From positions 2,191-66,190 of the forward strand of contig JBCCSO010000001.1 of the NCBI GenBank assembly GCA_039199965.1: a stretch of 64,000 nt of DNA. Direction: 5' to 3'. The position numbers and the translations under genes were made by a program. The notes beneath the pieces were generated by a model. The model was not told the origin of the DNA. It ran no database searches and saw nothing but the letters and a program-made list of their open reading frames with translations. This DNA comes from Chloroflexota bacterium. GTDB lineage: Bacteria; Chloroflexota; Anaerolineae; Promineifilales; Promineifilaceae. Position 1 is the first letter of the stretch. Each line of letters begins with the position of its first letter. Below are positions 1 through 64,000 of the stretch, piece after piece.

Positions 1-87
1 ACCTGCGTCGGGATGAGAGATGATGGCAAAAGTTCTTCTGCTACCAACTTGCTTTTTAATTTTTTCAGCTGAAATTTCTTCAGTCAT
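1..87 (-). CDS. prfC: Peptide chain release factor 3 (RF3), first 29 codons only; the gene runs off the left edge of the window
   Basis: The minus-strand ATG at 87..85 translates to MTEEISAEKIKKQVGSRRTFAIISHPDAG. This is the RRTFAIISHPDAG(KT) GTPase G1 opening typical of RF3. It is absent from the ORF track because it is truncated. Confidence 0.65.
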   Translation of the reverse strand, partial: MTEEISAEKIKKQVGSRRTFAIISHPDAG

Positions 88-169
88 GTATTTTATTTAT
101 AACACAGGAAAATTTTTAAGTCCCTGCGCTTTTTGATATGGAAGAGTCAATAATCTGGAATGATGACAC

Positions 170-200
170 AAAAAAGCGGCCACGGAAAATCCGTGACCGC
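170..200 (-). terminator. Intrinsic terminator downstream of the S41 peptidase gene
   Basis: Read on the minus strand: GCGGUCACGG-AUUUU-CCGUGGCCGC (10 bp, one G-U pair), followed by UUUUUU. It lies 33 nt after the stop at 233. Confidence 0.7.
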
Positions 201-232
201 CCGCAAATTATATTCAATTTTGACAGTTTTTG

Positions 233-17386: not shown

Positions 17387-18609
17387 CGAATTAGTGGGTT
17401 CCGCTCGAGCTTGGCATGGGCAACGACTGACTCAACTGCGGCAGATTGTTGCCTGCGCGTGTAGTTCTCAAAGTCAATAAAAAGTGAATCATCAATTTTC
17501 CCGATCCCCTTAGTCACGCCAAAGTAGGTTGACACAGAGAAGTCACCCAGTGGGGCAATAAGGGCGTTGGCTTGCTGATCAATGCTTCCGTATCCGCCGC
17601 CCAAATACCAGATACCCGCGCCTAGCACTTCAGGGTAGGCTGCATACAGTTGGCTGGCCCATAAAATGTCTTCCATGGCGTTGTTTAAATCCGGCACGCT
17701 GCGGTATTCCCAGCCCCACTCAGTAATCAGAATGGTCGGCCGGCCGATACCCTGATTGTCTACAACATCAAACAATTTCTGAAAACGGCCTAACAGCCAT
17801 GGATAAAGACGGCCAATTGTCCCTGTTTCGTAGCTATATTCATGAAGGGAGACAGCCACCAGCTTCGGATGCTCAGCCGCGTATGCCAAAAATTCAAGCA
17901 TCTTCTCCCCCTCCCAGTGCTCAATCTCAGGTTCTCCAGAAGACCAAGCAAACATAGCTACTTTTCGGCCGTCAGCCACTGCTAACTTTGCCAGTGCCAA
18001 CGAGAACTCTGCCAACCACTCGCTTCTATTCTTATCCGGTTCATTGATGGTTTCCATCCAAACCCTAGTGGGGTCTAACTCAGGTGGCCACGCGGCTACC
18101 AAGCGCTCATACACAATATCAGCTTCTTCGATCGGATCATTGTCATAATTTGGCAATTCAAACGAACCGCCGGTCCGGCGGAATACCATAATATGTTCAA
18201 CACCGCTTACATTTCCAAGCTCTTGAACTTCGTAGATGGGGCCAGCATCGTCAACAGCCTTGATAAAAATTGGGACCCCTGCAGCATCCAGCTTCTCAAA
18301 ATACTGAGTAATGCCGCTTAAATTCCCGCTTGGTCCCGTATGGAAGCCAATTTTGTTATATGCTAACTCTTTGGTTTCAGTTAAGGCTGCCGCCGCTTGC
18401 ATAAAATCAACCGGATTAGTGCTGGTATAAACATCAGGAATAGGCAGGGGATCAGGCAATTCAGCCACCGGCTCTTCACCATTGGCAACAATTGGAAGGT
18501 AGACCCTAGCAAGCTCATCTTCTTGCGATTGAGCGATATGAGCAAATTGGAGTGACAACAGGCACAATAAAATGAGTGTGGGGGCGATCCCAAGTAACTT
18601 TTCTCTCAT
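17383..18609 (-). CDS. Secreted TIM-barrel glycoside-hydrolase-like protein (clan GH-A signatures)
   Basis: The signal peptide is MREKLLGIAPTLILLCLLSLQFAHIAQS. ETINEPD (acid/base NEP) and ITEWGWE (nucleophile Glu) lie about 110 aa apart, as in clan GH-A enzymes. The GH family is not assignable. Confidence 0.45.
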   Translation of the reverse strand: MREKLLGIAPTLILLCLLSLQFAHIAQSQEDELARVYLPIVANGEEPVAELPDPLPIPDVYTSTNPVDFMQAAAALTETKELAYNKIGFHTGPSGNLSGITQYFEKLDAAGVPIFIKAVDDAGPIYEVQELGNVSGVEHIMVFRRTGGSFELPNYDNDPIEEADIVYERLVAAWPPELDPTRVWMETINEPDKNRSEWLAEFSLALAKLAVADGRKVAMFAWSSGEPEIEHWEGEKMLEFLAYAAEHPKLVAVSLHEYSYETGTIGRLYPWLLGRFQKLFDVVDNQGIGRPTILITEWGWEYRSVPDLNNAMEDILWASQLYAAYPEVLGAGIWYLGGGYGSIDQQANALIAPLGDFSVSTYFGVTKGIGKIDDSLFIDFENYTRRQQSAAVESVVAHAKLERNPLIR

Positions 18610-20836: not shown

Positions 20837-22960
20837 TTAGTCAGCAGCTACTGGCGCAGAGCTCTCGGCCGACATAATAACAGGATCAAAAGCCTCCAGA
20901 GTTTCTTTGGGCAAATGGCAAAAGACTCTATGGCCATCTTCAAATTCTCGCCATGGCGGAATATTTGTTTCGCACTTTTTACCTCCATCAGGCATAAGCT
21001 CTCTGCGAGGGCAGCGCGTATGGAAACGGCAACCGCTAGGTGGATTTAAAGCACTGGGTACAGTACCCTCCAGACGAATTCGCTTTTGCTCAATCGTAGG
21101 GTCTGGAATTGGAACCGCTGAAAGAAGGGCTTCTGAATACGGGTGATACGGTGGTCGGTAAATTGCATCGGCCGGGCCAATTTCCATCACTTGTCCAAGA
21201 TACATCACCGCAATGCTGTCTGAAAAGAAGCGAACAACGCTCAAATCGTGTGCAATAAAAATCAGTGTGGTTCCCAACTCTCGCTGAATATCAATCAACA
21301 AGTTCAGAATAGCTGCTTGCACAGACACATCTAGTGCGGAAACCGGCTCATCGCAAAGAATTAGCTCGGGTCGACTTGCCAAGGCTCTAGCAATACCCAC
21401 TCGCTGCTTTTCACCACCAGAAAGCTGACGTGGAAGTCGATCAAGGTAATTTGCGCCCAAACGCATTGATTCAAGCAATCTTACAACTTCACCACGAACC
21501 TCATCCTTTGGTACTGTGCCAAAACGAATCATCGGCCGACCAATTTGTTGACCTACTGTGTAGGATGGATTCATCGTTGAGTCTGGATTCTGGAATACCA
21601 TCTGCAGCTCTTGAATCAGTTTATTGTCCCGCTCGCTGAGAGCAGTTGTAATGTCATATCCAATAAACTCAGCTTCACCATCAGTTGTTTCTTCCAAACC
21701 GATGAGTGTTTTAATAAGAGTGCTTTTACCACAGCCAGATTCTCCAACAATACCAAGTGTACTGCCGCGAGGTACGCTAAACGTTGCGTCTTCAACCGCT
21801 TTTACTTGACGAGCTGATTCAAGACCAAATACAGCTCGAAGCGAATTGCCCTGAACATCATAGTATTTCTTCAGAGATTCAACCGTGATAATGGGCTCGT
21901 TTTTTGTGACATCTTCCGTTGAAGGTTTGACACGAATATCATCACTTGGAATCCACGCAGATGGGTCAATATCTTCAGAAAAATGGCAGCGGACAGCGTT
22001 TCCATTTGGCAAAATGCGAACCTGCGGGCGCTCTTGTACACATTTATCTTGTACATAATCACAACGCGGGCCATAAACGCAGCCAGAAGGTCTATCGTTT
22101 GGAGGTGGTACGCGGCCGCGAATCGGATATAGCTGTGCACTGGCCTTATCTGCGCCCAACTTAGGAACACAGCGAATCAGACCTTGAGTATATGGATGCT
22201 GCGGCCGGGCAAAAATATCTTCTACAGGTGCACGCTCAACCAGCTCACCTGCATACATCACATTAACAAAATTACAAACACGGGCCACAACTCCTAGGTT
22301 GTGGCTAATGTACATAATTGCCGTGTCAAACTCCCTACGCAGTTCAGCAATCAAGTCTAGTACGGCAGCTTCAACAGTTACATCCAAAGCTGTTGTAGGC
22401 TCATCCATCACCAACAATGCAGGATTGGTCAAAAGCGCCATTGCAATAACAACACGCTGCTGCTGGCCACCAGAGATCTGATGCGGATAACGAGTTAAAA
22501 CGTTCGCCGGGTCAGGCATATAAACACGTTCAAGCATTTTTATACACCGCTCGGCCGCTTCATCGTCTGACATTCCACGGTGAACGGTCAGAACTTCTTT
22601 CATCTGAGCACCAAGTGTCAGAGACGGGTTTAGAGCCTGCATAGGATCTTGATAGACCATCGCAATCGAATTACCGCGTAATTTCCGCAGCTCTTCACCC
22701 TCTACACCAACCAGCTCCTTTCCTTGAAAGAGGACGGAACCCTTCTTAACGTAGCCATTATCTCCCAAGAAGTTTAAGATAGCCCACGCTACTGTACTTT
22801 TACCACAACCTGACTCACCAACAATACCAACAGATTCGCCACGATGAAGGTCAAAAGACACATTTTGCACAGCTTCAACTTCACCACCACGGATTTTATA
22901 CGCAACCGCTAAGTCTTTTACTTGTAAGACAGGTTCTTTTCCTTTATTTTCCACTACCAT
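20837..22960 (-). CDS. Fused double ATPase of a peptide/nickel-type (PepT family) ABC importer (DppD-DppF fusion)
   Basis: 707 aa with two Walker A motifs (GESGCGKS twice) and two LSGG(Q/E) signatures. Each half is followed by the Cys-rich oligopeptide C-terminal extension (GCVYGPRCDY...; GCRFHTRCPRRE). Confidence 0.9.
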   Translation of the reverse strand: MVVENKGKEPVLQVKDLAVAYKIRGGEVEAVQNVSFDLHRGESVGIVGESGCGKSTVAWAILNFLGDNGYVKKGSVLFQGKELVGVEGEELRKLRGNSIAMVYQDPMQALNPSLTLGAQMKEVLTVHRGMSDDEAAERCIKMLERVYMPDPANVLTRYPHQISGGQQQRVVIAMALLTNPALLVMDEPTTALDVTVEAAVLDLIAELRREFDTAIMYISHNLGVVARVCNFVNVMYAGELVERAPVEDIFARPQHPYTQGLIRCVPKLGADKASAQLYPIRGRVPPPNDRPSGCVYGPRCDYVQDKCVQERPQVRILPNGNAVRCHFSEDIDPSAWIPSDDIRVKPSTEDVTKNEPIITVESLKKYYDVQGNSLRAVFGLESARQVKAVEDATFSVPRGSTLGIVGESGCGKSTLIKTLIGLEETTDGEAEFIGYDITTALSERDNKLIQELQMVFQNPDSTMNPSYTVGQQIGRPMIRFGTVPKDEVRGEVVRLLESMRLGANYLDRLPRQLSGGEKQRVGIARALASRPELILCDEPVSALDVSVQAAILNLLIDIQRELGTTLIFIAHDLSVVRFFSDSIAVMYLGQVMEIGPADAIYRPPYHPYSEALLSAVPIPDPTIEQKRIRLEGTVPSALNPPSGCRFHTRCPRRELMPDGGKKCETNIPPWREFEDGHRVFCHLPKETLEAFDPVIMSAESSAPVAAD

Positions 22961-22979: not shown

Positions 22980-24044
22980 TTATTTTTGATATCGACTTAA
23001 TTCTTCACGGACACCATCAGCAAATAGATTTAAACCAATCACCAATGTCGAAATTGCCAGCGCAGGCCAAATCACAATATTTGGTGTTGAGAAAATCAAC
23101 TCGCGGCCGCCATTAACCATACTTCCCCAATCCGGTTCAGGTGGTTGTAAACCTAATCCCAAGAAGCCTAATGTACCGATGGTGAAGATCGCGTATCCAA
23201 CACGTAGCATCGCATCCACCAATAGTGGTCCACGGGCGTTAGGCAAGATTTCCCTGAACATGATGTAAAACAAGCCTTCACCACGCGTTTCAGCTGCGCG
23301 AATATAATCACGTGTTTTAATGTCCAAGGCCAAAGATCTTGCTAATCGAGCAATTCCAGGAGCACCAGTCACTGTGATGGCAATGATAATAACCAAGTCA
23401 CCTTGTCCCAAAGCAGCAATTACAACGATGTAGAGAACAATACGAGGAAACGCAACCAAGGCATCCATAAGCTGCATCACGATTTGCTCAATCCAGCCAC
23501 CTTTATAGCCTGCAAGAAGACCGAACGTCGTTCCCACTAATAATGAACCAAATACTCCCCAGATTGCCACACCACCGGGCACCACAAACTCATCCCATTC
23601 TTCAGGTGCAAAGTTGTCCAAAAATCGGCCCAAAGCAGAAGAGGTCTGCTGCATAGTCACATCTTCTGCTGGCAAGGGGATACGAGTTTTGAGCAAAATC
23701 ACCTGTCCGCCAGCCATAACGCGAGACAAAATGTCGCGCCCAGTTTTATCTGTGCCCAGCAAAAAGCGAGGATCTGGGCGCGTGCGGTCATCGTAATCTT
23801 CTAGGTCAACCCATGGTAGATAGGTCCACAAATAGGCTGATCTCTGTGCGTCTCTAAAGTATTGTTCATTCGGATCATGCGGCGTCCAAACTAAGGATAG
23901 AAGTGCCATCCCAAACCAAAAAAGAACAATTGCCAATCCAACCATCCCAATTGGTGAATCAAAGATGATTGATACATTTTTCCAAATTTTAGCCAATCGC
24001 GAAGGAGTGCGGGTGACAGTTACATCTGGTTGTGCTGTTGCCAT
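22980..24044 (-). CDS. ABC importer permease (DppC/OppC-like) with an enlarged extracytoplasmic insert
   Basis: 354 aa containing the N-terminal OppC-type helix, LGTDKTGRD, and the EAA-like loop YIRAAETRGEG. Confidence 0.85.
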   Translation of the reverse strand: MATAQPDVTVTRTPSRLAKIWKNVSIIFDSPIGMVGLAIVLFWFGMALLSLVWTPHDPNEQYFRDAQRSAYLWTYLPWVDLEDYDDRTRPDPRFLLGTDKTGRDILSRVMAGGQVILLKTRIPLPAEDVTMQQTSSALGRFLDNFAPEEWDEFVVPGGVAIWGVFGSLLVGTTFGLLAGYKGGWIEQIVMQLMDALVAFPRIVLYIVVIAALGQGDLVIIIAITVTGAPGIARLARSLALDIKTRDYIRAAETRGEGLFYIMFREILPNARGPLLVDAMLRVGYAIFTIGTLGFLGLGLQPPEPDWGSMVNGGRELIFSTPNIVIWPALAISTLVIGLNLFADGVREELSRYQK

Positions 24045-24067
24045 ATTATTTTCCCTTCTTCCCTAAA

Positions 24068-25468
24068 TTAAGCGTAACGGATACGCGGATTTAGGAATGT
24101 GTATGCCAAGTCACCCAGCAATCGAGTGGCTACAGCGATTAAAACGGTCACCATAGCGGCTGCTTCCACCGCATTAGGGTCTCCAAAAATAGAGTGATCG
24201 AAAATAAATTTTCCTAATCCTTGAAAACCGAAGATAACTTCTACAACCACAATTCCACCAATTAAGTAATTGATGTGAAGCATAATAATGGTAATTGGTG
24301 CCAAAAGCGCATTACGTACCGCATGGCGAACGACAACGCGACGGAAAGGCATCCCTTTTATAATCGCCGTCCGAATATATGGAGCGGCCATGACTTCAAC
24401 CATACTGGCCCGGGTCATACGAATAATGTATCCAAGCTCAACTGCTGTAAGTGTGAGTACTGGCAAAATCAGCTCTTTCGGCTTTTCAAAAATCGCATTG
24501 GGACTATCTGCCAATGTTGTCGTGGGCACCTTTAAGGCTTCGAGCCATGCTTCAGGCAGCCACCCCGCTTCTACCAATCCCGGTAGCCAATTATTGGACC
24601 AATAAATACCCACTATTAATATCAACAAGACCCCTGTCACAAATTCAGGTGTTGCTGTCAGCGCCAAACTTGTAACAGACACGAAGCGGTCGAAGAATTT
24701 GCCCTCGTTAATACCAGTCATAATTCCTAGGAACAAAGCGAGAGGCATAACAACGATGAAGGCCAATCCAGCTAAAACAGCCGTATTTCGAATACGCACA
24801 GGTAAGGTCTTAGATACAGGTCGTGTTGTTTTTAAGGAAACACCAGCATCCCCACGAAGTAAGCCTTTGCGCAACGGAACCCATTGCACAGCAGCACCCG
24901 TCAACTCTTGTACACCTGTTTGTGTTGATACAAAAGCGGTTGCTCCATCACCTTCAACCCACTTCGCAGCACGATTCCCCCCATCAACTCCCCAGAAGAA
25001 GCTTTCACCTGTCTCAGGATCTATTTGCCAAAGATCACCTGCAAGTTCTCTTTGGGTGGTTCCATCAGGCTGTCGTACCAAATAAAGAAGGTCTCCTGAC
25101 TCACACAAGCCAGAATCTATATCTTCGGCCCGGCTACAAACTTGATGACGGACATATCTACCATCATCAAGAAGTACGTACCATTCTTGCTCTTGGCTCT
25201 CTTCATTGAAAACAGTTTGCAGATTCCCGGCTTCATCAGACAAACGCCAATCATTTCCAATTAGCCAGTCTGTATAGCGGATATAGGCTGGTTGATCAAG
25301 ACCAAGCTGCTTTCTAAGGGATTCCCTCTGTTCCGGTGTGGCGAAAACGCCAAGAATCTGGATCGTTACGTCTCGACCACTTACTTCCAACAAAGTAAAC
25401 AGTACGATAGAAACAATCAACATTGTGATAAGCGTGGAAATAACGCTTCGCATCAAAAATCTAGCCAT
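24068..25468 (-). CDS. ABC importer permease (DppB/OppB-like) with an insertion of about 150 aa after TM1
   Basis: 466 aa. It opens with MARFLMRSVISTLITMLIVSIVLF and has the EAA-like YIRTAIIKGMPFRRVVVRHAVRNA. A long hydrophilic segment spans about residues 60-215. Confidence 0.85.
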   Translation of the reverse strand: MARFLMRSVISTLITMLIVSIVLFTLLEVSGRDVTIQILGVFATPEQRESLRKQLGLDQPAYIRYTDWLIGNDWRLSDEAGNLQTVFNEESQEQEWYVLLDDGRYVRHQVCSRAEDIDSGLCESGDLLYLVRQPDGTTQRELAGDLWQIDPETGESFFWGVDGGNRAAKWVEGDGATAFVSTQTGVQELTGAAVQWVPLRKGLLRGDAGVSLKTTRPVSKTLPVRIRNTAVLAGLAFIVVMPLALFLGIMTGINEGKFFDRFVSVTSLALTATPEFVTGVLLILIVGIYWSNNWLPGLVEAGWLPEAWLEALKVPTTTLADSPNAIFEKPKELILPVLTLTAVELGYIIRMTRASMVEVMAAPYIRTAIIKGMPFRRVVVRHAVRNALLAPITIIMLHINYLIGGIVVVEVIFGFQGLGKFIFDHSIFGDPNAVEAAAMVTVLIAVATRLLGDLAYTFLNPRIRYA

Positions 25469-25708
25469 GATCTGCTCCAGTCTATATTTATATTTTTAAC
25501 TGAGCTATTCGTGTTGGTTTGAGCAAAACAAAACGAAATCGCTTTTCTGAACCAATAATTTAGCTTTTTATTAAACCGTAAAAGCGAATAATTCGCCAAG
25601 GCAAATTTAAAACAAGCATTAACGCACGATGGGAGCATGGCAAATGCCATGCTCCCATCATTTTCAAAGCAGCCAAAGGAGTGACCAATTGCTGCACTTA
25701 GTCAATAA

Positions 25709-27451
25709 TTATGCTGAGTCAACCCATGTCTCATTCAACAGGTCATATCCGGTTGGATGCGCTGGTAAATTGTGGACACGTGTTGTGTGAATCATCCAAG
25801 AGCTCTTGAAAAATGCAACACCAATTGGTCCACGCGTTTGGAAGATATCCATAAGCTGGCCAATTTTTTCACGGCGGGCTGAAACATCCAAAGTAGCTTC
25901 TGCTTCTCTTAAGACTGCCGAGAACTCATCATCTACCCAACGAGTTTCATTCCAAGGAACTGGAGCACCCTCAGCATCAGCGATGTAAGCCAATGGCAAA
26001 ACTTGTGTGTCCAAAGGACGATGTGTCCAAGAGGTAATACCGAGGGGCACTTGGTCCCAACGTTCCCAGTAACCACTTGCTTCAGTGATGTCTAGATCAA
26101 ATTCAAAGCCAGTGTCCGCAGAATCTTCCTTTAATGCTTCCGCGTATTCTTGCTCACCAGCGTCATTCTTGGTCACGATGGTCGCGCGAATTGGTAATTC
26201 ATTGCCTGTATCAGCGGCCCACTCTTGGAGTAGGGCGGCTGCACCTTCAGGATCATACTCAGGCACAGGGCGTGGATCATAAGCTGGATGGACAGGAGCT
26301 ATGTGAGCGTCAACGCCCAAGTCACCTTCACCAAACCAAGCTAAAGATATGATCTTTTCACGGTTTTGAATCTTGCGAAGTGCATTACGTACCCGCTCAT
26401 CGTCCCAAGGCGCACCTTGGTCAACACGTACACGAAGGACAAGCGTCTGAGCAGTCGAGGCCGATTTCACAACCATGTTTGGATTGTCTTTCAATGCAAG
26501 GAAGTCAGCTGGACGCGGCAAATAGAATGTATCTACCTGACCAGACTGCAAACCGGCAACTGATGCGTCTCTGTCAATCGAAACATAGACCACTTCATCC
26601 AGGTAAGGTAGTGCTTCACCATCTTCGCCATTTTGCCAATAGCCTTCGCGACGGGTCAGAACAGCACGTTCGCCGTCAGAGAACTCAGACAAGGTGAATG
26701 GGCCGGTACCAATTGGCTGGGTAATAAAGTCCCCTTCAAACGAGCGATGCATGATCGCAGCCGGATAGTGGAAGAGATGCTCCGGGACGCCGATGTTTGG
26801 AGAAGCAAGCGTCAATTTGATGGTGTAATCATCAACTTTTTCAACACTGTTCATGCCATCCAGGTAAGAAAGCTGACCCAACATTGAAGAGCCAACTTCT
26901 GGATCTAACCATTGCCCAAAATTAAACATGATGTCATCGGCGGTCATTTCATCACCGTTGTTGAACATAATGCCCTGGCGCAGGTTTAGCGTCCACTCTG
27001 AAACGTCAGCATTCGCTTCCCAGCTTTCCAGAAGCCATGGCGTAGTGACATTGTCAGGGTCTGTGAAGGTCAAGTATTCAGCAACTTGGCGAACAACATT
27101 AGCACCTTCAATCCATGATAAGCGAGCTGGATGGTCGATTAATTGAAGCTCAGCACCAATGGTTAAAGTACCACCGCGAGAGATGCCCATTTCCGCCATC
27201 TCTTCCATTTCTTCTTCGACTACTTCTTCAACCTCTTCGGCCGCTTCCTCAACCACCTCTGGAGCTTCTTCAACCACAGGGGCTGGGGTCGAGCATGCAG
27301 TTGCGAGAGCAGCAGACATGCCAAGAAGGGTGGCAAAGCGAATAAACTCACGACGAGAAATGCGGCCTTCCTTCAATGCATTGAATGCATCAGGAATACG
27401 CGGATGTATTTCATACATCTGTTCTTTCATCTGTTTTTCTTCTTTTTTCAT
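25709..27451 (-). CDS. Family-5 extracellular solute-binding lipoprotein (peptide/nickel type) with a Tat-like signal and acidic linker
   Basis: I place the start at ATG 27451 (MKKEEKQ...), which is preceded by GGAGGAG; the ORF track starts 25 codons earlier. SRREFIRFATLLGMSAALATAC combines a twin-arginine-like signal with a lipobox. An EEAPEVVEEAAEEVEEVVEEE linker follows. The body is SBP_bac_5-like. Confidence 0.8.
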   Translation of the reverse strand: MKKEEKQMKEQMYEIHPRIPDAFNALKEGRISRREFIRFATLLGMSAALATACSTPAPVVEEAPEVVEEAAEEVEEVVEEEMEEMAEMGISRGGTLTIGAELQLIDHPARLSWIEGANVVRQVAEYLTFTDPDNVTTPWLLESWEANADVSEWTLNLRQGIMFNNGDEMTADDIMFNFGQWLDPEVGSSMLGQLSYLDGMNSVEKVDDYTIKLTLASPNIGVPEHLFHYPAAIMHRSFEGDFITQPIGTGPFTLSEFSDGERAVLTRREGYWQNGEDGEALPYLDEVVYVSIDRDASVAGLQSGQVDTFYLPRPADFLALKDNPNMVVKSASTAQTLVLRVRVDQGAPWDDERVRNALRKIQNREKIISLAWFGEGDLGVDAHIAPVHPAYDPRPVPEYDPEGAAALLQEWAADTGNELPIRATIVTKNDAGEQEYAEALKEDSADTGFEFDLDITEASGYWERWDQVPLGITSWTHRPLDTQVLPLAYIADAEGAPVPWNETRWVDDEFSAVLREAEATLDVSARREKIGQLMDIFQTRGPIGVAFFKSSWMIHTTRVHNLPAHPTGYDLLNETWVDSA

Positions 27452-35975: not shown

Positions 35976-35981
35976 TCTAGG

Positions 35982-36053
35982 TGTTCCCACCAGGACTCGA
36001 ACCTGGGCCTTCGGCTTCGGAGACCAACGCTCTATCCTCTGAGCTATGGGAAC
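35982..36053 (-). tRNA. tRNA-Arg (anticodon CCG)
   Basis: The reverse complement folds by hand as a cloverleaf. Acceptor stem: GTTCCCA/TGGGAAC. D arm: GCTC-AGAGGATA-GAGC. Anticodon arm: TTGGT-CTCCGAA-GCCGA, with U33 and A37. The variable loop is 4 nt. T arm: CCAGG-TTCGAGT-CCTGG. The discriminator is A. CCA is not encoded. Confidence 0.85.
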
Positions 36054-40406: not shown

Positions 40407-41714
40407 ATGGATGTGCCAATCCCCACACAAAATCAGCAAACCGAAAGACTGGAAGCTCTCTATGATTTGGCTGTTGAGCTTTCGTCTCAAATAAGTTTAG
40501 ATTCAGTACTCCATACCGCTTTAAAACAGTGTCTAAAATTAACTGATTCACAATTTGGATTTGTTGGCTTTTCAGATGAAGATGGAAAGATTCTTGAAGT
40601 AGTCGCAACAGTTGGCTTTGAGCTTGCCCCTGATTTTTATCAGAACAATCGGTTCATCCCACTCCGGCCAAACATCTTTTCATACGTTATTCTGAACAAT
40701 AGACCAATCCGCACGGCTGATGCCCGAATCGATCCAAGACGCGTTGGGCAACCGACAGATCATCCACCTGTACAAACATTCTTAGGCGTTCCACTGCGTA
40801 TACACAATCGCGCCACCGGCATGATTGGTGTCGCTAATCGCCCCGATCCCTACGCTGAGGAGCATGAGCAGTTGCTGATGACCTATGCCGCTCAGGTTGC
40901 CATCGTGGCACGCAATCGACAGCTGTTTGAAGAGCTCGAGCAAACCAATTCATCACTTGAGGAGATGGTTGCGCAGCGTACAGTCGAGCTCCAAATCGCC
41001 CAGCATCGTTTAGCAGAAAAAGCGGAGCAATTACGTCGCTTGCTCCAAGAGACTGTTAGCGTCGAAGAGAGGGAACGTCAGCGGATAGCTCTTGGCATTC
41101 ATGATGGAGTCAATCAGCTCATTTATGGAGCGATGTTTGAACTAAAATCAACAAAAAAACGGTTGCAGAGCGGCGGAATTGATCAAGCGGTGCAGTCAGT
41201 CGACTCAGTTGAAGAAATATTGCTGCAGGTAGAGCAAGAGACAAAACGTATCATATACGATTTACGCCCTCCGATGCTCGATACGCTTGGGCTGGTTCCT
41301 ACACTGCGCCACTATGGCAAGCAGTATCAGCAATACACTGGTGTCCCCTGCTCAGTAAAAATTTTAGGTGAGGAAATACGCATTAGCCCAGCCGCAGAGG
41401 TCAACATTTATCGGGTAGTTCAAGAAGCACTACAGAATTCGGCCACCCACGCAGCCGCTTCTCATGCGCATGTTCTGCTTACCTTCTCACCAGCCACCTT
41501 AAAAATTACTATCACCGATGATGGGCAAGGGTTTGATATCAGGGCAATTGAATCAAGATACCAAGATCGATTGGGGTTGATGGGTATGCAAGAGAGAGCT
41601 GAAAGTTTGGGTGGCTCTCTGCACATTGATTCTAATCCGGGTTTGGGCACGCGAGTTGAAATGGCTATTCCGATACAATCCATTGCACTAGAAGCAAACA
41701 GAGGTGGCTCATGA
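40407..41714 (+). CDS. Cytoplasmic GAF-domain sensor histidine kinase (HisKA_3/NarX-type)
   Basis: There is an N-terminal GAF-like region. The coiled-coil ERERQRIALGIHDGVNQ is a HisKA_3 H-box. The HATPase N and G boxes are QEALQNSATHA and DDGQGF...GLMGMQERAESLGG. No TM helices. Confidence 0.85.
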   Translation: MDVPIPTQNQQTERLEALYDLAVELSSQISLDSVLHTALKQCLKLTDSQFGFVGFSDEDGKILEVVATVGFELAPDFYQNNRFIPLRPNIFSYVILNNRPIRTADARIDPRRVGQPTDHPPVQTFLGVPLRIHNRATGMIGVANRPDPYAEEHEQLLMTYAAQVAIVARNRQLFEELEQTNSSLEEMVAQRTVELQIAQHRLAEKAEQLRRLLQETVSVEERERQRIALGIHDGVNQLIYGAMFELKSTKKRLQSGGIDQAVQSVDSVEEILLQVEQETKRIIYDLRPPMLDTLGLVPTLRHYGKQYQQYTGVPCSVKILGEEIRISPAAEVNIYRVVQEALQNSATHAAASHAHVLLTFSPATLKITITDDGQGFDIRAIESRYQDRLGLMGMQERAESLGGSLHIDSNPGLGTRVEMAIPIQSIALEANRGGS

Positions 41715-46645: not shown

Positions 46646-46648
46646 GGC

Positions 46649-49692: not shown

Positions 49693-49726
49693 CTAACCAC
49701 TAACATCTAACCACTAACATCTAAAC
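49693..49726 (+). repeat. Tandem 14-mer (CTAACCACTAACAT x2 plus partial CTAAAC) abutting the coxS start codon
   Basis: Read directly: 49693..49706 and 49707..49720 are identical, and 49721..49726 is a partial third copy. The complementary TAGTGGTT/TAGTCGTT motifs lie at 49643..49672. Confidence 0.9.
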
Positions 49727-49728
49727 AA

Positions 49729-50226
49729 ATGTCAAAACACGAAATAACTGTAACTGTAAACGGAACTGAACATACGGAAGAAGTCGAAAGTAGGCTGCTA
49801 TTGGTCCACTTTATCCGTGAAAATCTTGATCTGACCGGCACCCACATTGGCTGTGACTCCACAAGCTGTGGTGCTTGCACGATCCAAGTAGATGGACAGA
49901 CGGTCAAAAGTTGCACCATGTTTGCGGTGCAAGCCAATGGCAAAAGCATCAAAACCATTGAAGGGATGGCAAATGGTGCTGAACTACATCCTTTACAAGA
50001 AGGATTCTGGGAAAAACATGGGCTACAGTGCGGCTACTGCACGCCCGGGATGATCATGCAGGCGGACCATCTTTTGAGCAAAAATCCAAACCCGACAGAA
50101 GAGGAAATCCGCTGGGGTATTTCTGGTAACCTGTGCCGCTGCACCGGCTACAACAAGATTGTTGAAGCGATCGAGTATGCGGCCGACAAAATGGCAAACA
50201 GTGAAACGGAGGCAGAGACAGCATAA
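49729..50226 (+). CDS. coxS: CO dehydrogenase small ([2Fe-2S]) subunit
   Basis: 165 aa. [10 protein letters not shown] is the plant-type [2Fe-2S] site. [10 protein letters not shown]...CRCTGY is the second cluster. Confidence 0.9.
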
Positions 50227-52685
50227 TGACTTATCATAATCCAAATGCCCCTCGTCACTTGGAAGACCGAGTAGAAAAACAGATTACCCCTATGGGGCCG
50301 AATGAGTCTGCAAATGTGGAAACCACGGAGGAGGTGCGTATTACCACACCGCCTGAAATTTGTGGTATGGGGCACCGAATGAAGCGGAAAGAAGATCCGC
50401 GCTTTATTCAGGGCAAAGGGAACTACGTCGATGATATTAAGTTACCCGGCATGCTGTACATGGACATTGTCCGCAGCCCCTATGCACACGCCAAAATTTT
50501 AGAAATTGATGCAAGCGAAGCTTTGGCAACAGAAGGTGTTTTGGCTGTTATCACAGGTAAAGATCTTGAAGCGCATAACTTAGCATGGATGCCTACGTTA
50601 ATGTCAGACACTCAAATGGTGTTGCCAACCGACAAAGTGGTTTACTATGCGCAGGAAGTCTGTGCCGTTGTCGCCACAAGCCGCTACATCGCGGCCGACG
50701 CCATTGAAAAAATTTACGTCGATTATGAACCACTAGACCCAGTTGTTGATCCATTTGACGCACTGAATGACAACACCCTCGTTCGTGAAGACAAAGAGGA
50801 AAAAACCAATCGGATTTGGCACTGGGAAGTAGGCGACAAAGATGCCACAGATGAGGTGTTCGCAAATGCAGCCCACGTCATCAAGCAGCATCACTACATC
50901 CCGCGTATTCATGTTTCTTCGATTGAAACCTGCGGTATGGTGGCAAACTACAACAGCGCCACTGGCAAAATGCAGCTTTTCATGACAACGCAGGCACCCC
51001 ACGCTATTCGCACCGTTTTCGCTTTGGTAGCAGGGCTGCCTGAGCACAAAATTCAGGTGGTATCACCCGATATTGGCGGTGGATTTGGCGGTAAGGTTCC
51101 CGTTTATCCGGGGTATGTGATTTGTGCGGCCGCTTCTCTCTTGATTGGCAAACCGGTCAAATGGATCGAAGATCGCTCAGAGAATTTACAGGCAGATAGT
51201 TTTGCTCGTGATTATCATCTAGACGCGGAACTCGCGGCCGATGAGAACGGAAAAATCATTGGATTGCGCGTTAATGGTCTGGCTGACCATGGCTGTGCTG
51301 ACGCGGCCGCCAATCCTTCAAAATTCCCGGCCGGATTGTTCTCAATTTGTACCGGTTCATACGACATGCAGGCGGCTCACGTTAACTTCGACGCCGTGTA
51401 CACCAACAAGCCCCCCGGTGGTGTAGCTTATCGCTGCTCATTCCGTGTGACAGAAGCGGTGCAAATGATTGAGCGCATGACTGACATGATGGCGCACGAG
51501 CTGGGTGTAGATCCAGCCGACTATCGGATGCGTAACTTCATCCAGCCAGAAGATTTTCCATACGAGTCCCCTACTGGCTGGCACTACGACAGTGGTAACT
51601 ACCCGGCCGCATTGCAGAAAGCGATGGATATGATCGGGTATGACGAGCTGCGTAAAGAGCAGGCGGAAATGCGCAAAGAAGGAAAGCTGATGGGGATTGG
51701 TATTTCCAGCTTTACAGAAGTCGTTGGCGCAGGGCCAAGCCGCGACTACGACATTTTGGGGATCAAGATGTTTGACTCGGCCGAAATTCGCATCCATCCA
51801 ACCGGCAAAGCGATAGCCCGCTTTGGCACCAAGTCACAGGGGCAGGGTCATGAAACAACCTACGCTCAGATCTTAGCAGAAGAGTTGGGGTTGCCAGCGG
51901 CCGACATCGAGATTGAAGAAGGGGACACCGATACGGCGCCATACGGTTTGGGTACATACGCCAGTCGTTCAACCCCCACGGCCGGGGCTGCGGCCGCCAT
52001 GGCAGCACGGAAGATCAAAGCCAAAGCCAAGAAAATCGCCGCTTACTTGCTCGAAGTAAACGAAGATGACCTTGAGTGGAACATCAATCAGTGGCAGGTG
52101 AAAGGGTCTCCTGAGCAGGCAAAAACAATCCAAGACATTGCATTTGCTGCCTACACCAACCATCCACCGGGCATGGAAGCTGGCCTCGAAGCAACTGACT
52201 ACTATGATCCACCCAACTTGACCTTCCCATTCGGCTCGTACATCGCTGTGGTAGATATTGACACCGGCACCGGGATGGTTGAAATTCGCCGCTTTGTGGC
52301 GATTGACGACTGTGGCAACATCATCAACCCACTTGTGGTTGAAGGTCAGGTCCACGGTGGTTTGACGATGGGATTGGCGCCTGCCATGTACGAAGAAATC
52401 GTTTACGATGAAAATGGGCAGTGTCTAACCGGCACTTTCGCAGACTACTTGGTTCCAACGGCCGTAGAGTCACCCAAATGGGAAACCGGCCACACAATCA
52501 CACCCTCACCTCACCATCCAATTGGTGCAAAAGGTGTGGGTGAATCACCAACAGTTGGTGCGCCACCCGCCATCGCCAATGCTGTAGTCGATGCGATGTG
52601 GCACCTTGGTGTGCGTCACATTGACATCCCCATCACACCGCAAAAGGTGTGGAAAGCTCTGCGCGATGCAGGTGTTAACGACTAG
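50226..52685 (+). CDS. coxL: Form-I aerobic CO dehydrogenase large (molybdopterin) subunit
   Basis: 819 aa. The active-site loop reads GGVAYRCSFRVTEA. AYxCSFR is the established form-I CoxL signature; form II has AYRGAGR. The start overlaps the coxS stop (ATAATG). Confidence 0.9.
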   Translation: MTYHNPNAPRHLEDRVEKQITPMGPNESANVETTEEVRITTPPEICGMGHRMKRKEDPRFIQGKGNYVDDIKLPGMLYMDIVRSPYAHAKILEIDASEALATEGVLAVITGKDLEAHNLAWMPTLMSDTQMVLPTDKVVYYAQEVCAVVATSRYIAADAIEKIYVDYEPLDPVVDPFDALNDNTLVREDKEEKTNRIWHWEVGDKDATDEVFANAAHVIKQHHYIPRIHVSSIETCGMVANYNSATGKMQLFMTTQAPHAIRTVFALVAGLPEHKIQVVSPDIGGGFGGKVPVYPGYVICAAASLLIGKPVKWIEDRSENLQADSFARDYHLDAELAADENGKIIGLRVNGLADHGCADAAANPSKFPAGLFSICTGSYDMQAAHVNFDAVYTNKPPGGVAYRCSFRVTEAVQMIERMTDMMAHELGVDPADYRMRNFIQPEDFPYESPTGWHYDSGNYPAALQKAMDMIGYDELRKEQAEMRKEGKLMGIGISSFTEVVGAGPSRDYDILGIKMFDSAEIRIHPTGKAIARFGTKSQGQGHETTYAQILAEELGLPAADIEIEEGDTDTAPYGLGTYASRSTPTAGAAAAMAARKIKAKAKKIAAYLLEVNEDDLEWNINQWQVKGSPEQAKTIQDIAFAAYTNHPPGMEAGLEATDYYDPPNLTFPFGSYIAVVDIDTGTGMVEIRRFVAIDDCGNIINPLVVEGQVHGGLTMGLAPAMYEEIVYDENGQCLTGTFADYLVPTAVESPKWETGHTITPSPHHPIGAKGVGESPTVGAPPAIANAVVDAMWHLGVRHIDIPITPQKVWKALRDAGVND

Positions 52686-52694
52686 GTATTGTAG

Positions 52695-52740
52695 AAAAAG
52701 AGCTTCGCTGTTTTTAAGCAGCGAAGCTCTTTTTGTATTT
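52695..52740 (+). terminator. Strong intrinsic terminator after coxL
   Basis: GAGCTTCGCTG-N8-CAGCGAAGCTC is an 11-bp perfect stem followed by TTTTTGTATTTTTT. Confidence 0.85.
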
Positions 52741-52781
52741 TTTAAAATTAGGAAAAGTCACAATTGTAGGAGACAAGCAAA

Positions 52782-53603: not shown

Positions 53604-53670
53604 ATCAGTTTTTCATAGGCCAAAGTAGGAAACAAGCGACACCGGCAAGCCGTTTATTTATACTGATCGC

Positions 53671-54033
53671 ATGTTTGACTTCCAAAATAACACGCCATCC
53701 GGAAATTTAATGCGGATGCTTCGGTTCACGGCAGCCATTATGGTCTTTTTAGCCGTTGTGCGTGCGGCTCAAAATGGCCTCCCAGAGCCAGCCATCTATG
53801 TAAACACCGTCAATTTCATGCTCTTGCTCTTTGGTCTGATGTCTTATTTGGCAGCTTATCTGATTGAGCAGAAGCAATCTGTTGGCTACATTCCAATTGC
53901 CGTTGCCACTTTATATCCATTGTCAGTTAGTTTGACAACGGGGCAGCCACTAAACATCGTCATCGTCATTTATGGCGCGTTTGTTCTCTTTCAATATTGG
54001 CGTTTAAGGCAATCCGGATACTTTGAAACCTAA
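53671..54033 (+). CDS. Small hypothetical integral membrane protein
   Basis: 120 aa with three or four hydrophobic helices and no recognisable motif. Confidence 0.45.
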   Translation: MFDFQNNTPSGNLMRMLRFTAAIMVFLAVVRAAQNGLPEPAIYVNTVNFMLLLFGLMSYLAAYLIEQKQSVGYIPIAVATLYPLSVSLTTGQPLNIVIVIYGAFVLFQYWRLRQSGYFET

Positions 54034-54078
54034 ACGAATTGACCCTCAGTTTTAATTTGCAGGGTCTTAACTCATCTT

Positions 54079-55068: not shown

Positions 55069-55234
55069 ATTGATGGAAGGGAAGTGTGGTCGCGCTCGAT
55101 AGAACGGCCGAAAGGTACAAATACAGCAAAATCAAGCGGAAAAAAACAGCTAATAATCCTGCTAATAAATGGCAATAGCCCACATACACTAAACGATTAT
55201 TCCTAAAACCGGTAGAACCGATTAGAACATGCGA

Positions 55235-59288: not shown

Positions 59289-59407
59289 AATTTGTATTCC
59301 ATCTAGTGTTTGACCAGACGAAAGATTTCTGATCCTAAATCAAGACAAACACGATAAGCTTCGCCAGTTGCAAAAAGCGCCAATAAATTGACCGGAGAAG
59401 CACTAGT

Positions 59408-59501
59408 GCTACGTCAAGGATGGATGGATGGAAACTCTTGACGTAGCCTACAGTGGTTTGTCTTGCCGATATTTCCATCACGTCATGATTGACAAACCAC
59501 T
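59408..59501. repeat. Two adjacent perfect 11-bp inverted repeats
   Basis: The first is GCTACGTCAAG (59408..59418) with CTTGACGTAGC (59437..59447). Its 18-nt spacer begins with three tandem GATG copies (59419..59430). The second is AGTGGTTTGTC (59452..59462) with GACAAACCACT (59491..59501), followed by AGTTTTTGG. Confidence 0.85.
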
Positions 59502-59622
59502 AGTTTTTGGCCATACAAACAAAAAGTCGCTGAAAAAACGGTTTTGTTACACTCAACATTCTATTTTACAAAAGCAAAAAGGCCGAACAAATCCAAAAAG
59601 ATTAAGAGGGCACAATCATGTG

Positions 59623-59768
59623 TAACCCGAGTTGCACCTAACTCTTGATTTCGAAAAGTTTTGTGCAAAGTGCGGGGCACTCCCGAGAAAGAACGACTAT
59701 TTCGAAGGTATTTACTGAGGAGTGCCCCGCACTTCTGAGGATCAACTTGTAGGTGGCAACTTGAGTTA
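59623..59768. other. 146-nt two-tier extended hairpin (candidate structured RNA or miniature inverted-repeat element)
   Basis: The outer stem pairs TAACCCGAGTTGCACCTA (59623..59640) with TAGGTGGCAACTTGAGTTA (59750..59768); it has 1 mismatch, 1 G-U pair and 1 bulge. The inner perfect 16-bp stem pairs AAGTGCGGGGCACTCC (59668..59683) with GGAGTGCCCCGCACTT (59719..59734). The terminal loop is 35 nt. The internal loop is asymmetric, 27 nt on one side and 15 nt on the other. Confidence 0.8.
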
Positions 59769-60495
59769 TGTCATCAATTGTTTATTTACACTCACAGATA
59801 AATAATCGAATCATGTCGATGAGCTAAAAACTATTCCACAAGTGAAGATGAATGCCATGACGAGATGTGACATTACTGGTTTATCCTGTTTCTTATGGTT
59901 ACCAATTGCGTTCGTACATTTGTCAAACATCGTTTCCAAGTGCTTAGTCAAACTTTTGTCAAACAAACAGTGCCGCCTTAGTGGTTGAAGGATTGTTGAA
60001 AGTGCAAAAACAAATTTCAAGAGGTTAAGTCAATTGTTAACCTTGCACAAAAACTGAGTGTTTCAGTTGTAAGATTTAAATTAACAGTGATCATTGCGGA
60101 CTTAAATCACTGTACTAGAATACACAATGTAAGTGTGAAACCGTATCTAGTTTGAGTAATAGAAGAGGCGAATTTAACCCCGCAATTCATCCAGAAGTAA
60201 TCAAAGCGGACTCTCAGTTCTTAAGGAATGCAGAACAAGCACGCTGTAACCAGCTTCCTTTTAAAAATTGAGTTTATCCCTCTCTCAATTGCCTAACTCA
60301 AGACGGAGAAACCTACCATCCAAGTAAAAATTTTGAATTAGACGCCTATCTACAACTTCTGTTCAATGGTTATGCATAGACCAATCAATAGAAGCACTTG
60401 TTTACGCTGTAAATTTGCCGATTTCACAATCAGCAATGTTTAAAACTTTAATATTTCGTTCATATGTTACTTACCATTAGGAGGTCAAATAAAAC

Positions 60496-62242: not shown

Positions 62243-62243
62243 C

Positions 62244-62642: not shown

Positions 62643-62733
62643 CGACACCATAGCTTCAAAAATTTATGCCATAAAAAAGGGAGATGGCCAAACGATGACC
62701 ATCTCCCTTTTTGGTTTCTAACTAGATAGATCT

Positions 62734-63585
62734 TTAGGCGCGATCTACCGCTTTCTTGATTGCGCGCTTAACAAAAACAGACGCCATTTCTCTGCGATAG
62801 TCGGCACTCGCATGAATATCGCTCATGATATCATCGCCTAAATCTGAGACAACAGCAGCAGCGGCCGCTTCAATATTCTCATCTGTCATCTCTTTACCAG
62901 CAAGGGCGGCTTCAACAGAGTCACAGCGCTGAGCTGCTGGCACTAATCCACCTATTGCAACAGATGCTGACTCGCAAGTGCTGCCATTCATCTTCACAGA
63001 TACAGCCGCACCCACAATTGCATAGCGCGATGCCGGATTAAACAACTTTGAATAAGCTGTTCCGGTTCCGCTGGATTTAGCCGGAACACTAACACCTGTT
63101 AGCAGTTCGTCTTCATCCATTGCAGTTTCAAATAGACCGGTGAAGAAGTCATCGGCCGATACATTTCGGCTACCACCTTCTCCAGTCACTTCCATCGTTG
63201 CGCCCAGAGCGGTCAAGACCGTTGGCAAGTCAGAAGCAGGATCAGCATGGGCGATATTCCCACCAACTGTTCCGCGATTGCGTACCATCGGGTCACCGAT
63301 CCAGCTTGCTGCTTCCGGCAGAGCGTCGGGCAGAGTGTCTGAGCCTTCAACCATTGCGTGGGTGGTCAATGATCCAATTTTGATCGAACCATTATTTTGG
63401 TTAATGCCTCTCAGGTCGTCAATCCGGCCGATGTCAACAATGCACCCGGGGTCAGCCAAGCGCAGCTTCATGACAGGAATCAGGCTGTGACCGCCTGCCA
63501 TAAACTTTCCGTCGTGTTCTTTTCTAAGCGCAATCGCCTCTTGAACGGACGAAGCGCGGTGATAATCAAATTTTGGTGGATACAT
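62734..63585 (-). CDS. FAD-binding medium subunit of a second xanthine-dehydrogenase/CODH-family enzyme (CoxM paralogue)
   Basis: 283 aa containing MAGGHSLIP and GTVGGNIAHADPASDLP. The architecture matches that of coxM at 48782. Confidence 0.8.
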   Translation of the reverse strand: MYPPKFDYHRASSVQEAIALRKEHDGKFMAGGHSLIPVMKLRLADPGCIVDIGRIDDLRGINQNNGSIKIGSLTTHAMVEGSDTLPDALPEAASWIGDPMVRNRGTVGGNIAHADPASDLPTVLTALGATMEVTGEGGSRNVSADDFFTGLFETAMDEDELLTGVSVPAKSSGTGTAYSKLFNPASRYAIVGAAVSVKMNGSTCESASVAIGGLVPAAQRCDSVEAALAGKEMTDENIEAAAAAVVSDLGDDIMSDIHASADYRREMASVFVKRAIKKAVDRA

Positions 63586-63603
63586 TAAATTTCCTCCTGA
63601 ACC

Positions 63604-64000
63604 CTAGTCAGCCGCAACCGCAGCACCTTTGATAGCGTTGTGAATGGCCAGTGGGGTATGTGGAATTTCCACATGGCGCACACCCATTGGGGCCAAAGCA
63701 TCCATGACCGCATTCGCCACGGTTGGGGTACCCGCAATCGTACCCATCTCACCAGCACCTTTGACACCCAGCGGGTTTGACGGCGATGGAATCTCAATTC
63801 GACCGAGATCAGACATAGGTAGATTGTCTGCACGGGGCATGGCGTAGTCTAAGAACGAACCGGTTAGCAACTGGCCGTTTTCATCATACTGACCGTGCTC
63901 AAGTAGCGCTTGACCAACACCTTGGGCAATACCACCCTGCAGCTGACCTTCTACAATCATCGGGTTAATCACATTGCCGACATCGTCTACGGCCGCGTAC
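63604..64000 (-). CDS. C-terminal part of a molybdopterin-binding large subunit (xanthine dehydrogenase/CODH family); continues beyond the right edge
   Basis: The translation ...INPMIVEGQLQGGIAQGVGQALLE...PLGVKGAGEMGTIAGTPTVANAV parallels the coxL C-terminus in this window (NPLVVEGQVHGG...GAKGVGESPTVGAPPAIANAV). The active-site loop lies outside the window, so the form cannot be assigned. Confidence 0.75.
   Translation of the reverse strand, partial: YAAVDDVGNVINPMIVEGQLQGGIAQGVGQALLEHGQYDENGQLLTGSFLDYAMPRADNLPMSDLGRIEIPSPSNPLGVKGAGEMGTIAGTPTVANAVMDALAPMGVRHVEIPHTPLAIHNAIKGAAVAAD

Follow-up and report, generated by a model that had tools for sequence, protein, structure and literature searches.

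The hexamer CGGCCG occurs 128 times in a 64,000-nt stretch of contig JBCCSO010000001.1 (hereafter the window), where base composition alone (order 0) predicts 9.7 copies, a 13.2-fold excess. The host is an uncultured member of the Chloroflexota, of Anaerolineae type. A genome-wide force acting at the DNA level favours the exact hexamer wherever it is free of cost: in synonymous codons, in three frames, in both orientations and in spacers. We interpret CGGCCG as a lineage-specific word of the highly iterated palindrome (HIP) type, which a weak genome-wide bias maintains in a clade of uncultured Chloroflexota, with a methyltransferase and biased repair as the most likely cause. Taken as a whole, this interpretation is given about an even chance (roughly 0.5).

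Abundance of CGGCCG in the window

CGGCCG is a perfect 6-nt palindrome of G and C only. On one strand it tops all hexamers, with 75 copies for the runner-up, and the next most enriched palindromic hexamer reaches only 2.4-fold (order 0). Markov models predict 9.8 copies at order 1, 16.1 at order 2, 27.9 at order 3 and 85.9 at order 4, and CGGCCG is the strongest outlier at each of these orders. The order-4 expectation comes near the observed count because that model contains the inflated pentamers CGGCC and GGCCG. A codon-preserving shuffle of the coding DNA, in which the protein and the codon usage of each gene are fixed, gave 17.2±3.6 copies with a maximum of 28 (300 shuffles), against 124 observed (z=29). 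The other strong hexamer outliers, relative to the shuffle or to the Markov models, are only words that overlap CGGCCG; no independent hexamer is comparable.

These counts bear on an earlier, sequence-only reading of the window, which had drawn attention to the word. Its estimate of about 128 copies was exact and its example coordinates are correct to within 1-2 nt. It had assumed a G+C content in the mid-40s %, 8-10 expected copies and a more than 10-fold excess, in agreement with the values above and with the measured 46.2% G+C. Two results were named there as fatal to the idea: a count within about 2-fold of a Markov or codon-shuffle null, and an equal enrichment of other GC-rich hexamers. 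Neither was obtained, as the order-3 and shuffle expectations and the list of outliers show.

Related words behave in an ordinary way. GCCGGC, which had been described as merely sporadic, is present in 8 copies for 9.7 expected. GGCC outside CGGCCG is at expectation (177 vs ~172), and CGATCG, the core of the cyanobacterial palindrome HIP1, is found 8 times for 13.1 expected. Bases at positions -6 to -1 of the sites (symmetrised) are at background frequencies; the unit is therefore the hexamer alone rather than a longer repeat or the NotI octamer. The sequence-only reading had located the NotI sites correctly, and there are exactly eight. The octamer is not separately enriched, since flanking-base frequencies predict about 7, and it is thereby ruled out as the true unit.

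A second candidate for hyper-abundance, CGATCG in a locus from a Kofleriaceae metagenome-assembled genome (MAG; locus L024, 1-22427), was rejected. The word appears ~13-fold enriched there by base composition, and it appears enriched also in L045, L035 and L088, but an order-2 Markov model predicts 140 copies for the 101 found in 22 kb. As trinucleotide and codon composition explains this excess, the locus serves as a control in which the composition test that fails for CGGCCG succeeds.

Codon phases, slots and spacing of the sites

Nearly all sites (124 of 128) lie inside called open reading frames (ORFs), and 43 of the 50 called genes carry them. The other four are those at 43407 and 43556, in the DsbA ORF, at 63990, by inference in a gene cut by the end of the window, and at 55105, which is intergenic. 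As the sequence-only reading had stated, all three codon phases are used: xCG-GCC-G 71 times, xxC-GGC-CG 30 times and CGG-CCG 23 times. Its example of the last phase, HRPG in the GNAT gene, is also correct.

To express these counts relative to the positions available, we define a slot as an amino-acid context able to encode CGGCCG synonymously, and occupancy as the fraction of slots that do encode it. In the window, 23 of 52 Arg-Pro slots, 71 of 198 [Ser/Pro/Thr/Ala]-Ala-[Val/Ala/Asp/Glu/Gly] slots and 30 of 60 x-Gly-Arg slots are occupied. Occupancy is thus 36-50% depending on context, though just 15% of the codons for Arg are CGG and 24% of those for Pro are CCG. The occupied slots resemble a random subset of all slots, and heterogeneity among genes is mild (chi-square P=0.03). 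Spacing of the sites is not more even than random (coefficient of variation, CV, 1.15), with a slight deficit of gaps below 100 nt. Regular short-range spacing is therefore ruled out. The longest site-free stretch, 4.1 kb, is at about the 98th percentile of the maximum gap under random placement.

The intergenic DNA of the window (7.6 kb, 38% G+C) contains a single site, at 55105, for ~0.4 expected. With so low an expectation at this length and composition, near-absence from the spacers is uninformative. The sequence-only reading had reported the motif as absent from intergenic DNA, which is almost literally true, with this one site. As evidence the observation does not hold, because it follows from small number and composition and because spacers of relatives are enriched (see below). 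The tRNA gene, tRNA-Arg(CCG), is indeed free of the word, as had been noted.

Distribution of CGGCCG among related genomes

The focal genome is represented by the 64 kb of the window, in which gene content is of an ordinary housekeeping kind: a form-I CO dehydrogenase cluster, SecDF, an Opp/Dpp transporter, serine hydroxymethyltransferase (SHMT) and tRNA-Arg(CCG). For comparison across genomes coxL was used as the marker gene, and its neighbourhood was compared in 168 loci from genome and metagenome collections, relatives being represented by 2.6-22 kb each. Gene calls of most loci were our own ORF-based calls; four relatives were used with their deposited calls. Relatedness was judged by CoxL only, and the coxL gene may itself move between genomes. 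The CoxL protein of the window is 100% identical to NCBI protein P0004 of 'MAG: Chloroflexota bacterium', and it shares 82-94% identity with proteins that carry the label Anaerolineae, Ardenticatenaceae or Promineifilaceae. A metagenome scan for closer relatives of the low-G+C lineage never gave a CoxL identity above 86%, and a scan of the genome collection with the Reg_prop protein (13857-16667) as query found no relative, which suggests that the reference genomes do not include the species of the window.

CGGCCG is the leading palindrome only among the nearest CoxL relatives (at least 84% identity). The enriched genomes number at least 15 distinct ones and range from 46 to 64% G+C. They carry 1.1-4.8 sites/kb (14 of 15 loci have about 2/kb or more), with an enrichment of 3.4-21-fold by composition and of 1.8-7.7-fold relative to the codon shuffle. 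Their assemblies come from independent sources (ENA, JGI, Logan and NCBI). Loci from Acidobacteriota, Myxococcota, Gemmatimonadota and others are neutral, with CGGCCG at about 1-fold.

Within the Chloroflexota, loci L018, L048, L053, L054, L055, L061, L089 and L115 contain no CGGCCG at all. This purged set includes near CoxL relatives, L018 and L089 (47.5% G+C, like the window), as well as Chloroflexia/Roseiflexaceae loci; L015, also a near relative, has 1 copy. Pooled over six zero-copy Chloroflexota loci, 0 copies were found for 43.9 expected, and the codon shuffle expects 4-17 per locus. The purged loci have many copies of GGCC, CGGCC and GGCCG, and several of them also lack TGGCCA and GCCGGC. 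Judged from these word counts, the zero-copy loci bear what would be the classical footprint of a restriction enzyme of CGGCCG specificity. Thus, proteins reading CGGCCG appear to operate in the phylum.

Other words are purged in the window itself. CCWGG occurs 18 times for 97.7 expected (CCAGG 11, CCTGG 7), and words containing it are the most under-represented relative to the codon shuffle. CCGCGG (1 vs 9.7), GGCGCC (3 vs 9.7), CTATAG (1 vs 17.8), ACATGT (2 vs 17.8) and GTATAC (3 vs 17.8) are also depleted. This set looks like the footprint of several restriction systems. The window therefore seems to feel ordinary restriction pressure, yet it treats CGGCCG in the opposite way.

In two Rhodothermus sp. 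MAG loci (L080, L084), CGGCCG fills 6 of 13 and 8 of 15 coxL slots. Its excess there is mild, 2.4-2.8-fold relative to base composition but only 1.3-1.5-fold under Markov models, and was set aside as probably a different phenomenon. Some database labels are odd: L002 (P0005) has the gene order of the window and is enriched in CGGCCG, yet it is labelled 'Cellvibrionaceae bacterium' at NCBI, and other CoxL matches at 82-83% identity carry Myxococcales or Gemmatimonadales labels. Either these are contaminated bins or coxL has moved between phyla. The CGGCCG signature could serve to flag mis-binned contigs.

A weak synonymous force and interchangeable sites

The number of coxL slots is alike in enriched and non-enriched relatives (12-15), and their occupancy runs from 0/18 to 11/14. 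This rules out that protein sequence is altered to make room for the word. In the intergenic DNA of the four relatives with deposited gene calls, 11 CGGCCG were found for 0.86 expected, i.e. ~13-fold. As spacers are enriched too, the force acts on DNA and not on proteins. The comparison of orthologues, which the sequence-only reading had proposed, shows a purely synonymous effect that is common to a clade.

In 13 genomes of the clade taken together, CGGCCG occupies 783 of 1794 slots. Across 15 loci of 46-64% G+C, occupancy is 0.23-0.76, with 11 of 15 at 0.3-0.5; L016 reaches 76-80%. In a two-state equilibrium, the occupancy of 0.40 in the window, compared with 0.052-0.055 under the shuffle, corresponds to a log odds shift S≈2.5. 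Per site this is a weak force, similar in size to that of codon bias or biased gene conversion. Over the 15 loci, occupancy is flat against G+C (rho -0.03), and both fold enrichment (rho -0.79) and S (rho -0.63) fall with it, all three uncorrected for phylogeny. Density looks buffered against G+C.

Turnover of the sites was followed at two distances. Between the window and relatives at saturating divergence (third-position identity 0.46-0.50), where amino acids are conserved, 45-76% of CGGCCG sites are kept, against 19-24% of control hexamers. At slots present in both diverged genomes, the number occupied in both was compared with the product of the two occupancies: the pairs of values were 21/19.5, 10/10.1, 15/13.3 and 5/5.3, with no significant association. 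Thus the sites are interchangeable and their positions are not conserved, the 45-76% retention being due to independent equilibrium occupancy in each genome. A position-specific regulatory or structural function of the sites is ruled out by this independence. At shorter distance, L009 and L010 (91.4% nucleotide identity) retain 83% of sites and 63.5% of control hexamers (P=2e-5). Loss per branch, polarised with outgroups, is 6/84 (0.071) for the sites and 0.144 for the controls, so that sites decay about half as fast as the background; gains were seen in 3 of 314 words differing from CGGCCG by one base (one-off words). The numbers of gains and losses are small.

Possible causes of the bias

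The source of the force would be a protein recognising CGGCCG, most likely a cytosine DNA methyltransferase of EagI specificity without an active cognate nuclease. Its methyl mark would bias mismatch correction, or the choice of strand in repair, toward the strand with the intact methylated site. Elhai's ratchet for HIP words requires a G-5-methylcytosine (G-m5C) dinucleotide and predicts saturation and sites without individual function (PMC4390886); CGG-m5C-CG would supply that dinucleotide. Such repair would turn one-off words into sites and preserve existing ones, up to a saturating density of a few per kb. In cyanobacteria, alternate HIPs such as GGCGCC co-occur with cognate methyltransferases (PMC4390886). 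We rank this explanation above DNA uptake and selection on density because the switch between saturation and complete purging among close relatives fits mobile restriction-modification genes; the other two are ranked lower because the spacing shows no evenness.

Several points weigh against a methyltransferase with biased repair. Pfam scans of 40 of the 50 called genes and of the DsbA ORF, together with a motif scan of the window and of loci L001-L088, revealed no DNA methyltransferase, Vsr or restriction/nuclease gene, either in the window or among ~2.8 Mb of fetched loci; the Pfam scans left out the cox-cluster genes (named from orthologue calls), 43608-43916 and two cox-like fragments at the right end. 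As the enzyme is absent from the fetched DNA, the methyltransferase step is one that we infer, and its central actor is hypothetical. Among the one-off neighbours, no single position is depleted in a way that would point to one methylated cytosine, and with only 3 gains among 314 one-off words per branch no rise in gain rate is demonstrated. The density of the enriched loci exceeds the ~1/kb at which Elhai's model saturates. The G+C trend, in addition to being uncorrected for phylogeny, is based on loci of 9-64 kb. Xu et al. favoured selection over repair bias in the case of HIP1 (PMC5861425), and recent work favours a role in DNA uptake (bioRxiv 10.64898/2026.06.24.733823).

Such a role is the strongest competitor here, possible if rather unlikely. 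CGGCCG would be a self-recognition signal for uptake or recombination, spread by molecular drive like the uptake signal sequences (USS) and DNA uptake sequences (DUS): a machinery preferring the (methylated) word would let alleles carrying it rise through homologous recombination up to saturation of the core genome. The same signatures would be expected, i.e. sites that are interchangeable, synonymous, in all frames, clade-specific and present at a few per kb, and the two site-poor genes or gene blocks of the window could be recent imports. HIP1 has been proposed as an uptake sequence (bioRxiv 10.64898/2026.06.24.733823) and is reported to raise transformation in a way that depends on methylation (10.1101/2024.09.10.611283). 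However, known uptake sequences are 9-12 nt long and asymmetric, a 6-mer discriminates only ~10-fold, and the sites are no more evenly spaced than random (CV 1.15). Complete purging in sister lineages also suggests restriction-modification enzymes rather than uptake receptors. A lower probability still is given to direct selection on site density for a chromosomal function, the sites being, for example, bound by a nucleoid protein or one of condensin type, or nicked so that mismatch repair can tell the strands apart. The sites would not have to arise through methylation. Xu et al. came to this conclusion on HIP1 (PMC5861425). Occupancy buffered across 46-64% G+C, site loss slower than that of controls and the lack of conservation of individual sites, expected if density alone matters, would all agree with it. 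Against this, the patchiness among near relatives, including zero-copy L089 and L018, is hard to square with an essential function, no regular spacing is seen inside the 64 kb, and a candidate protein is not known.

Very-short-patch repair alone, of the Dcm/Vsr type, in which the T:G mismatch at one methylated cytosine is always corrected to C:G, appears improbable. In E. coli, CCWGG is over-represented through Dcm/Vsr, and the window gave a hint of this kind: the inner-cytosine transition products CGGTCG/CGACCG are not elevated (0.8-fold, 18 copies), compared with 2.3-fold (52) and 1.5-fold (34) for the other positions, and in the slots, on small counts, the ratio of hexamer to inner products is 53:3, against 142:43 and 53:11 elsewhere. 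The hint vanished in the pooled phase-specific counts of the clade, where all three alternative bases are depleted similarly at every synonymous position and no transition-specific signature remains. Driving a single position would moreover at most about double the frequency of a word, not raise it 7-13-fold. There is a slimmer chance that the mark is another modification, such as Dnd phosphorothioation. No phosphorothioate consensus word is known to be hyper-abundant, dnd genes were not seen in the fetched DNA, and the idea is a pure analogy with Streptomyces lividans, in which CGGCCG is the preferred site (PMC6435447). Finally, almost no weight is given to the possibility that the excess is artefactual, whether from base composition, from the usage of codons or dipeptides, from a dispersed repeat or mobile element, or from assembly. 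The order-4 expectation approaches the count solely through the inflated pentamers, and the CGATCG 'excess' of the high-G+C control loci shows that trinucleotide composition can fully explain such a case; yet for CGGCCG, Markov orders 0-3 and the codon shuffle fall short by 4.6-13-fold. Use of three frames, enriched spacers in relatives, random flanks, hence no repeat unit, and the same result in assemblies from four sources all speak against an artefact, as does L089, which has the same proteins and the same G+C with zero copies.

Beyond the methyltransferase with biased repair, a broader proposal can be made, which we hold only tentatively. HIP would have originated independently outside cyanobacteria, and one six-base specificity would exist in two opposite regimes within a phylum. 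Where a nuclease is present, purging would remove every copy; where the modification is an orphan and is coupled to repair, uptake or recombination, the word would saturate 40-80% of free positions and then keep a set density whatever the G+C.

Comparison with known systems

CGGCCG displays every testable defining feature of the HIP class. The sequence-only reading of a HIP1-like genome-wide palindrome with a different core is supported. HIP1 proper (GCGATCGC, core CGATCG, cyanobacterial) is excluded by the low CGATCG count and by the host. Like HIP1, CGGCCG is a short, G+C-rich, perfect palindrome, an extreme outlier dispersed in genes and spacers in hundreds to thousands of copies outside any longer repeat; it is shared within a clade and retained between related genomes above control words. 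In both cases the debate on the cause is between repair bias, selection and DNA uptake (PMC4390886, PMC5861425). Unlike HIP1, it is a hexamer and not an octamer, it belongs to another phylum, its density is 1.1-4.8/kb instead of ~1/kb, and equilibrium occupancy fully accounts for its conservation at large divergence. HIP1 has known cognate methyltransferases; for CGGCCG, the methyltransferase is only a predicted one. HIP1 sites also show a 10-90 kb periodicity (Xu et al. 2018, PMC5861425).

Alternate HIPs have been described in cyanobacteria: GGCGCC in Calothrix PCC 7103, GCsGC in Cyanothece PCC 7822 and rCCGGy in Oscillatoria PCC 10802 (Elhai 2015, PMC4390886). They too are G+C-rich palindromes resembling restriction sites, and the observed/expected ratio of GGCGCC is of the same order (Calothrix, 15.5 in strain D253). 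These words are interpreted as by-products of a methyltransferase with matching specificity, an enzyme which was identified there and which is putative for CGGCCG. According to Elhai, they are sporadic, found in single strains and not forming clades, whereas CGGCCG is common to at least 15 species-level genomes over 18 G+C points. It is a HIP-type pattern with a new word, in another phylum and clade-wide.

The USS of Pasteurellaceae and the DUS of Neisseriaceae also reach about 1 copy/kb or more, occupy positions that are cheap for proteins, are clade-specific and reflect weak drive rather than site-by-site selection. They are 9-12 nt long, asymmetric and often paired as terminators, unlike CGGCCG, whose flanks contain no extended motif. 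For USS and DUS, a specific receptor and natural competence are known; among the called genes scanned in the window, no competence gene was seen. CCWGG in E. coli is likewise a methyltransferase palindrome raised by biased repair. The effect there is small, concerns one transition and depletes the T-neighbour, whereas CGGCCG is raised 7-13-fold with all neighbours depleted alike. Restriction-site avoidance concerns the same type of word and is seen for CGGCCG in other Chloroflexota, with the sign opposite in the enriched clade. The word differs from extragenic palindromes of the repetitive extragenic palindromic (REP) or miniature inverted-repeat transposable element (MITE) type, which are imperfect, at least 20 nt long and intergenic, as it has 6 nt and 124 of 128 copies in coding calls. 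It also differs from Chi-type hotspots, which are asymmetric and skewed in orientation with replication, since it is its own reverse complement and has no orientation.

Full-text searches of the literature turned up neither CGGCCG hyper-abundance nor HIP-like words in Chloroflexota. What they returned on modification of CGGCCG was phosphorothioation in S. lividans (PMC6435447) and a haloarchaeal Dcm family with predicted CGGCCG specificity.

Implications

For thirty years HIP1 has been puzzling, in part because work on it was confined almost entirely to cyanobacteria, in which correlations with methyltransferases, chromosome structure or DNA uptake are inseparable from shared ancestry. CGGCCG is a second, unrelated case and offers an independent natural replicate of the question. 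It comes with contrasts of its own: some close relatives are hyper-enriched, others neutral and others wholly purged, and the enriched genomes cover 46-64% G+C. Comparing gene content and methylomes between sister lineages could reveal the protein that causes the drive. If the two-regime proposal is true, hyper-abundant palindromes would be a general and predictable outcome of orphan methyltransferases combined with a bias in repair or uptake. On the practical side, the word distorts codon and codon-pair statistics and is a strong signature for binning and host assignment of uncultured Anaerolineae-type MAGs. EagI/NotI digestion, or methylation calling at CGGCCG, is predicted to behave unusually on DNA of the enriched clade.

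Features of the window

The positions of all sites, and of the genes and intervals that stand out by their occupancy, are collected in the table.

Table. Positions of CGGCCG sites and of associated features in the 64,000-nt window.
Feature	Position (nt)	Strand	Remarks
CGGCCG, starts of sites 1-64	1347, 1656, 2776, 3033, 3445, 4421, 4585, 4940, 6106, 6486, 6753, 7499, 7766, 8168, 8306, 9244, 9856, 10366, 10558, 10723, 12667, 12773, 12840, 13107, 13385, 14022, 14176, 14583, 14614, 15103, 16216, 17737, 17741, 17966, 18803, 19340, 19556, 19676, 20250, 20866, 21169, 21533, 22113, 22202, 22552, 23104, 27238, 29944, 30021, 30342, 30549, 30720, 31298, 31343, 31700, 31742, 32180, 32611, 32917, 32987, 33125, 34431, 35038, 36447		Exact word scan
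CGGCCG, starts of sites 65-128	38223, 38751, 39017, 39534, 39585, 39716, 40223, 41720, 42207, 43172, 43407, 43556, 43693, 43990, 44409, 46106, 46268, 46394, 46967, 47695, 47974, 49158, 49371, 49515, 49551, 50180, 50692, 51127, 51235, 51304, 51328, 51604, 51778, 51898, 51979, 51991, 52459, 52849, 53017, 53412, 54412, 54503, 54704, 54770, 54851, 55105, 55324, 55399, 55525, 55658, 55997, 56131, 57254, 57366, 57536, 57963, 59177, 60851, 61857, 61932, 62862, 63153, 63425, 63990		Exact word scan
Two overlapping copies of CGGCCG (CGGCCGGCCG)	17737..17746		Sequence read: GGTCGGCCGGCCGATA
Sole clearly intergenic CGGCCG	55105..55110		Spacer of 166 nt; the convergent genes on either side are XdhC-like (ends 55068) and SHMT (ends 55235)
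coxL, form-I CO dehydrogenase large subunit	50226..52685	+	Site-richest gene, 11/14 slots; binomial P=0.004 vs window mean of 0.40
Longest site-free stretch (4.1 kb)	23110..27237		Opp/Dpp-type permease and solute-binding genes; 1/19 slots over 24068-27526
GAF/HisKA_3 sensor kinase gene	40407..41714	+	0/8 slots, low outlier (P=0.016); domains from orthologue calls
NotI octamers (GCGGCCGC)	22112..22119; others start at 23103, 30548, 49370, 51126, 51303, 51990, 62861		Eight in all
tRNA-Arg(CCG)	35980..36053	-	Reads the CGG codon of the CGG-CCG phase; no CGGCCG inside

The form-I aerobic CO dehydrogenase cluster is complete at 45779-55068, with coxD/E/G-like accessory genes, coxM, coxS, coxL and an XdhC-like gene. 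At the right edge of the window (62734-64000), the minus strand carries another coxM/coxL-like pair, which is divergent, with 43-48% identity to the first.

The two longest spacers, 59289-60495 (1.2 kb) and 27527-28230 (0.7 kb), contain no ORF of at least 90 codons, and an Rfam scan at the gathering threshold gave no match in them. At 42361-43922, long ORFs on opposite strands overlap: a DsbA-like gene (43128-43922, plus strand) overlaps a PanB-like ORF (42361-43251, minus strand) that matches only the C-terminal part of ketopantoate hydroxymethyltransferase. Probably the TTG start of the PanB-like ORF is over-extended, or the gene is truncated.

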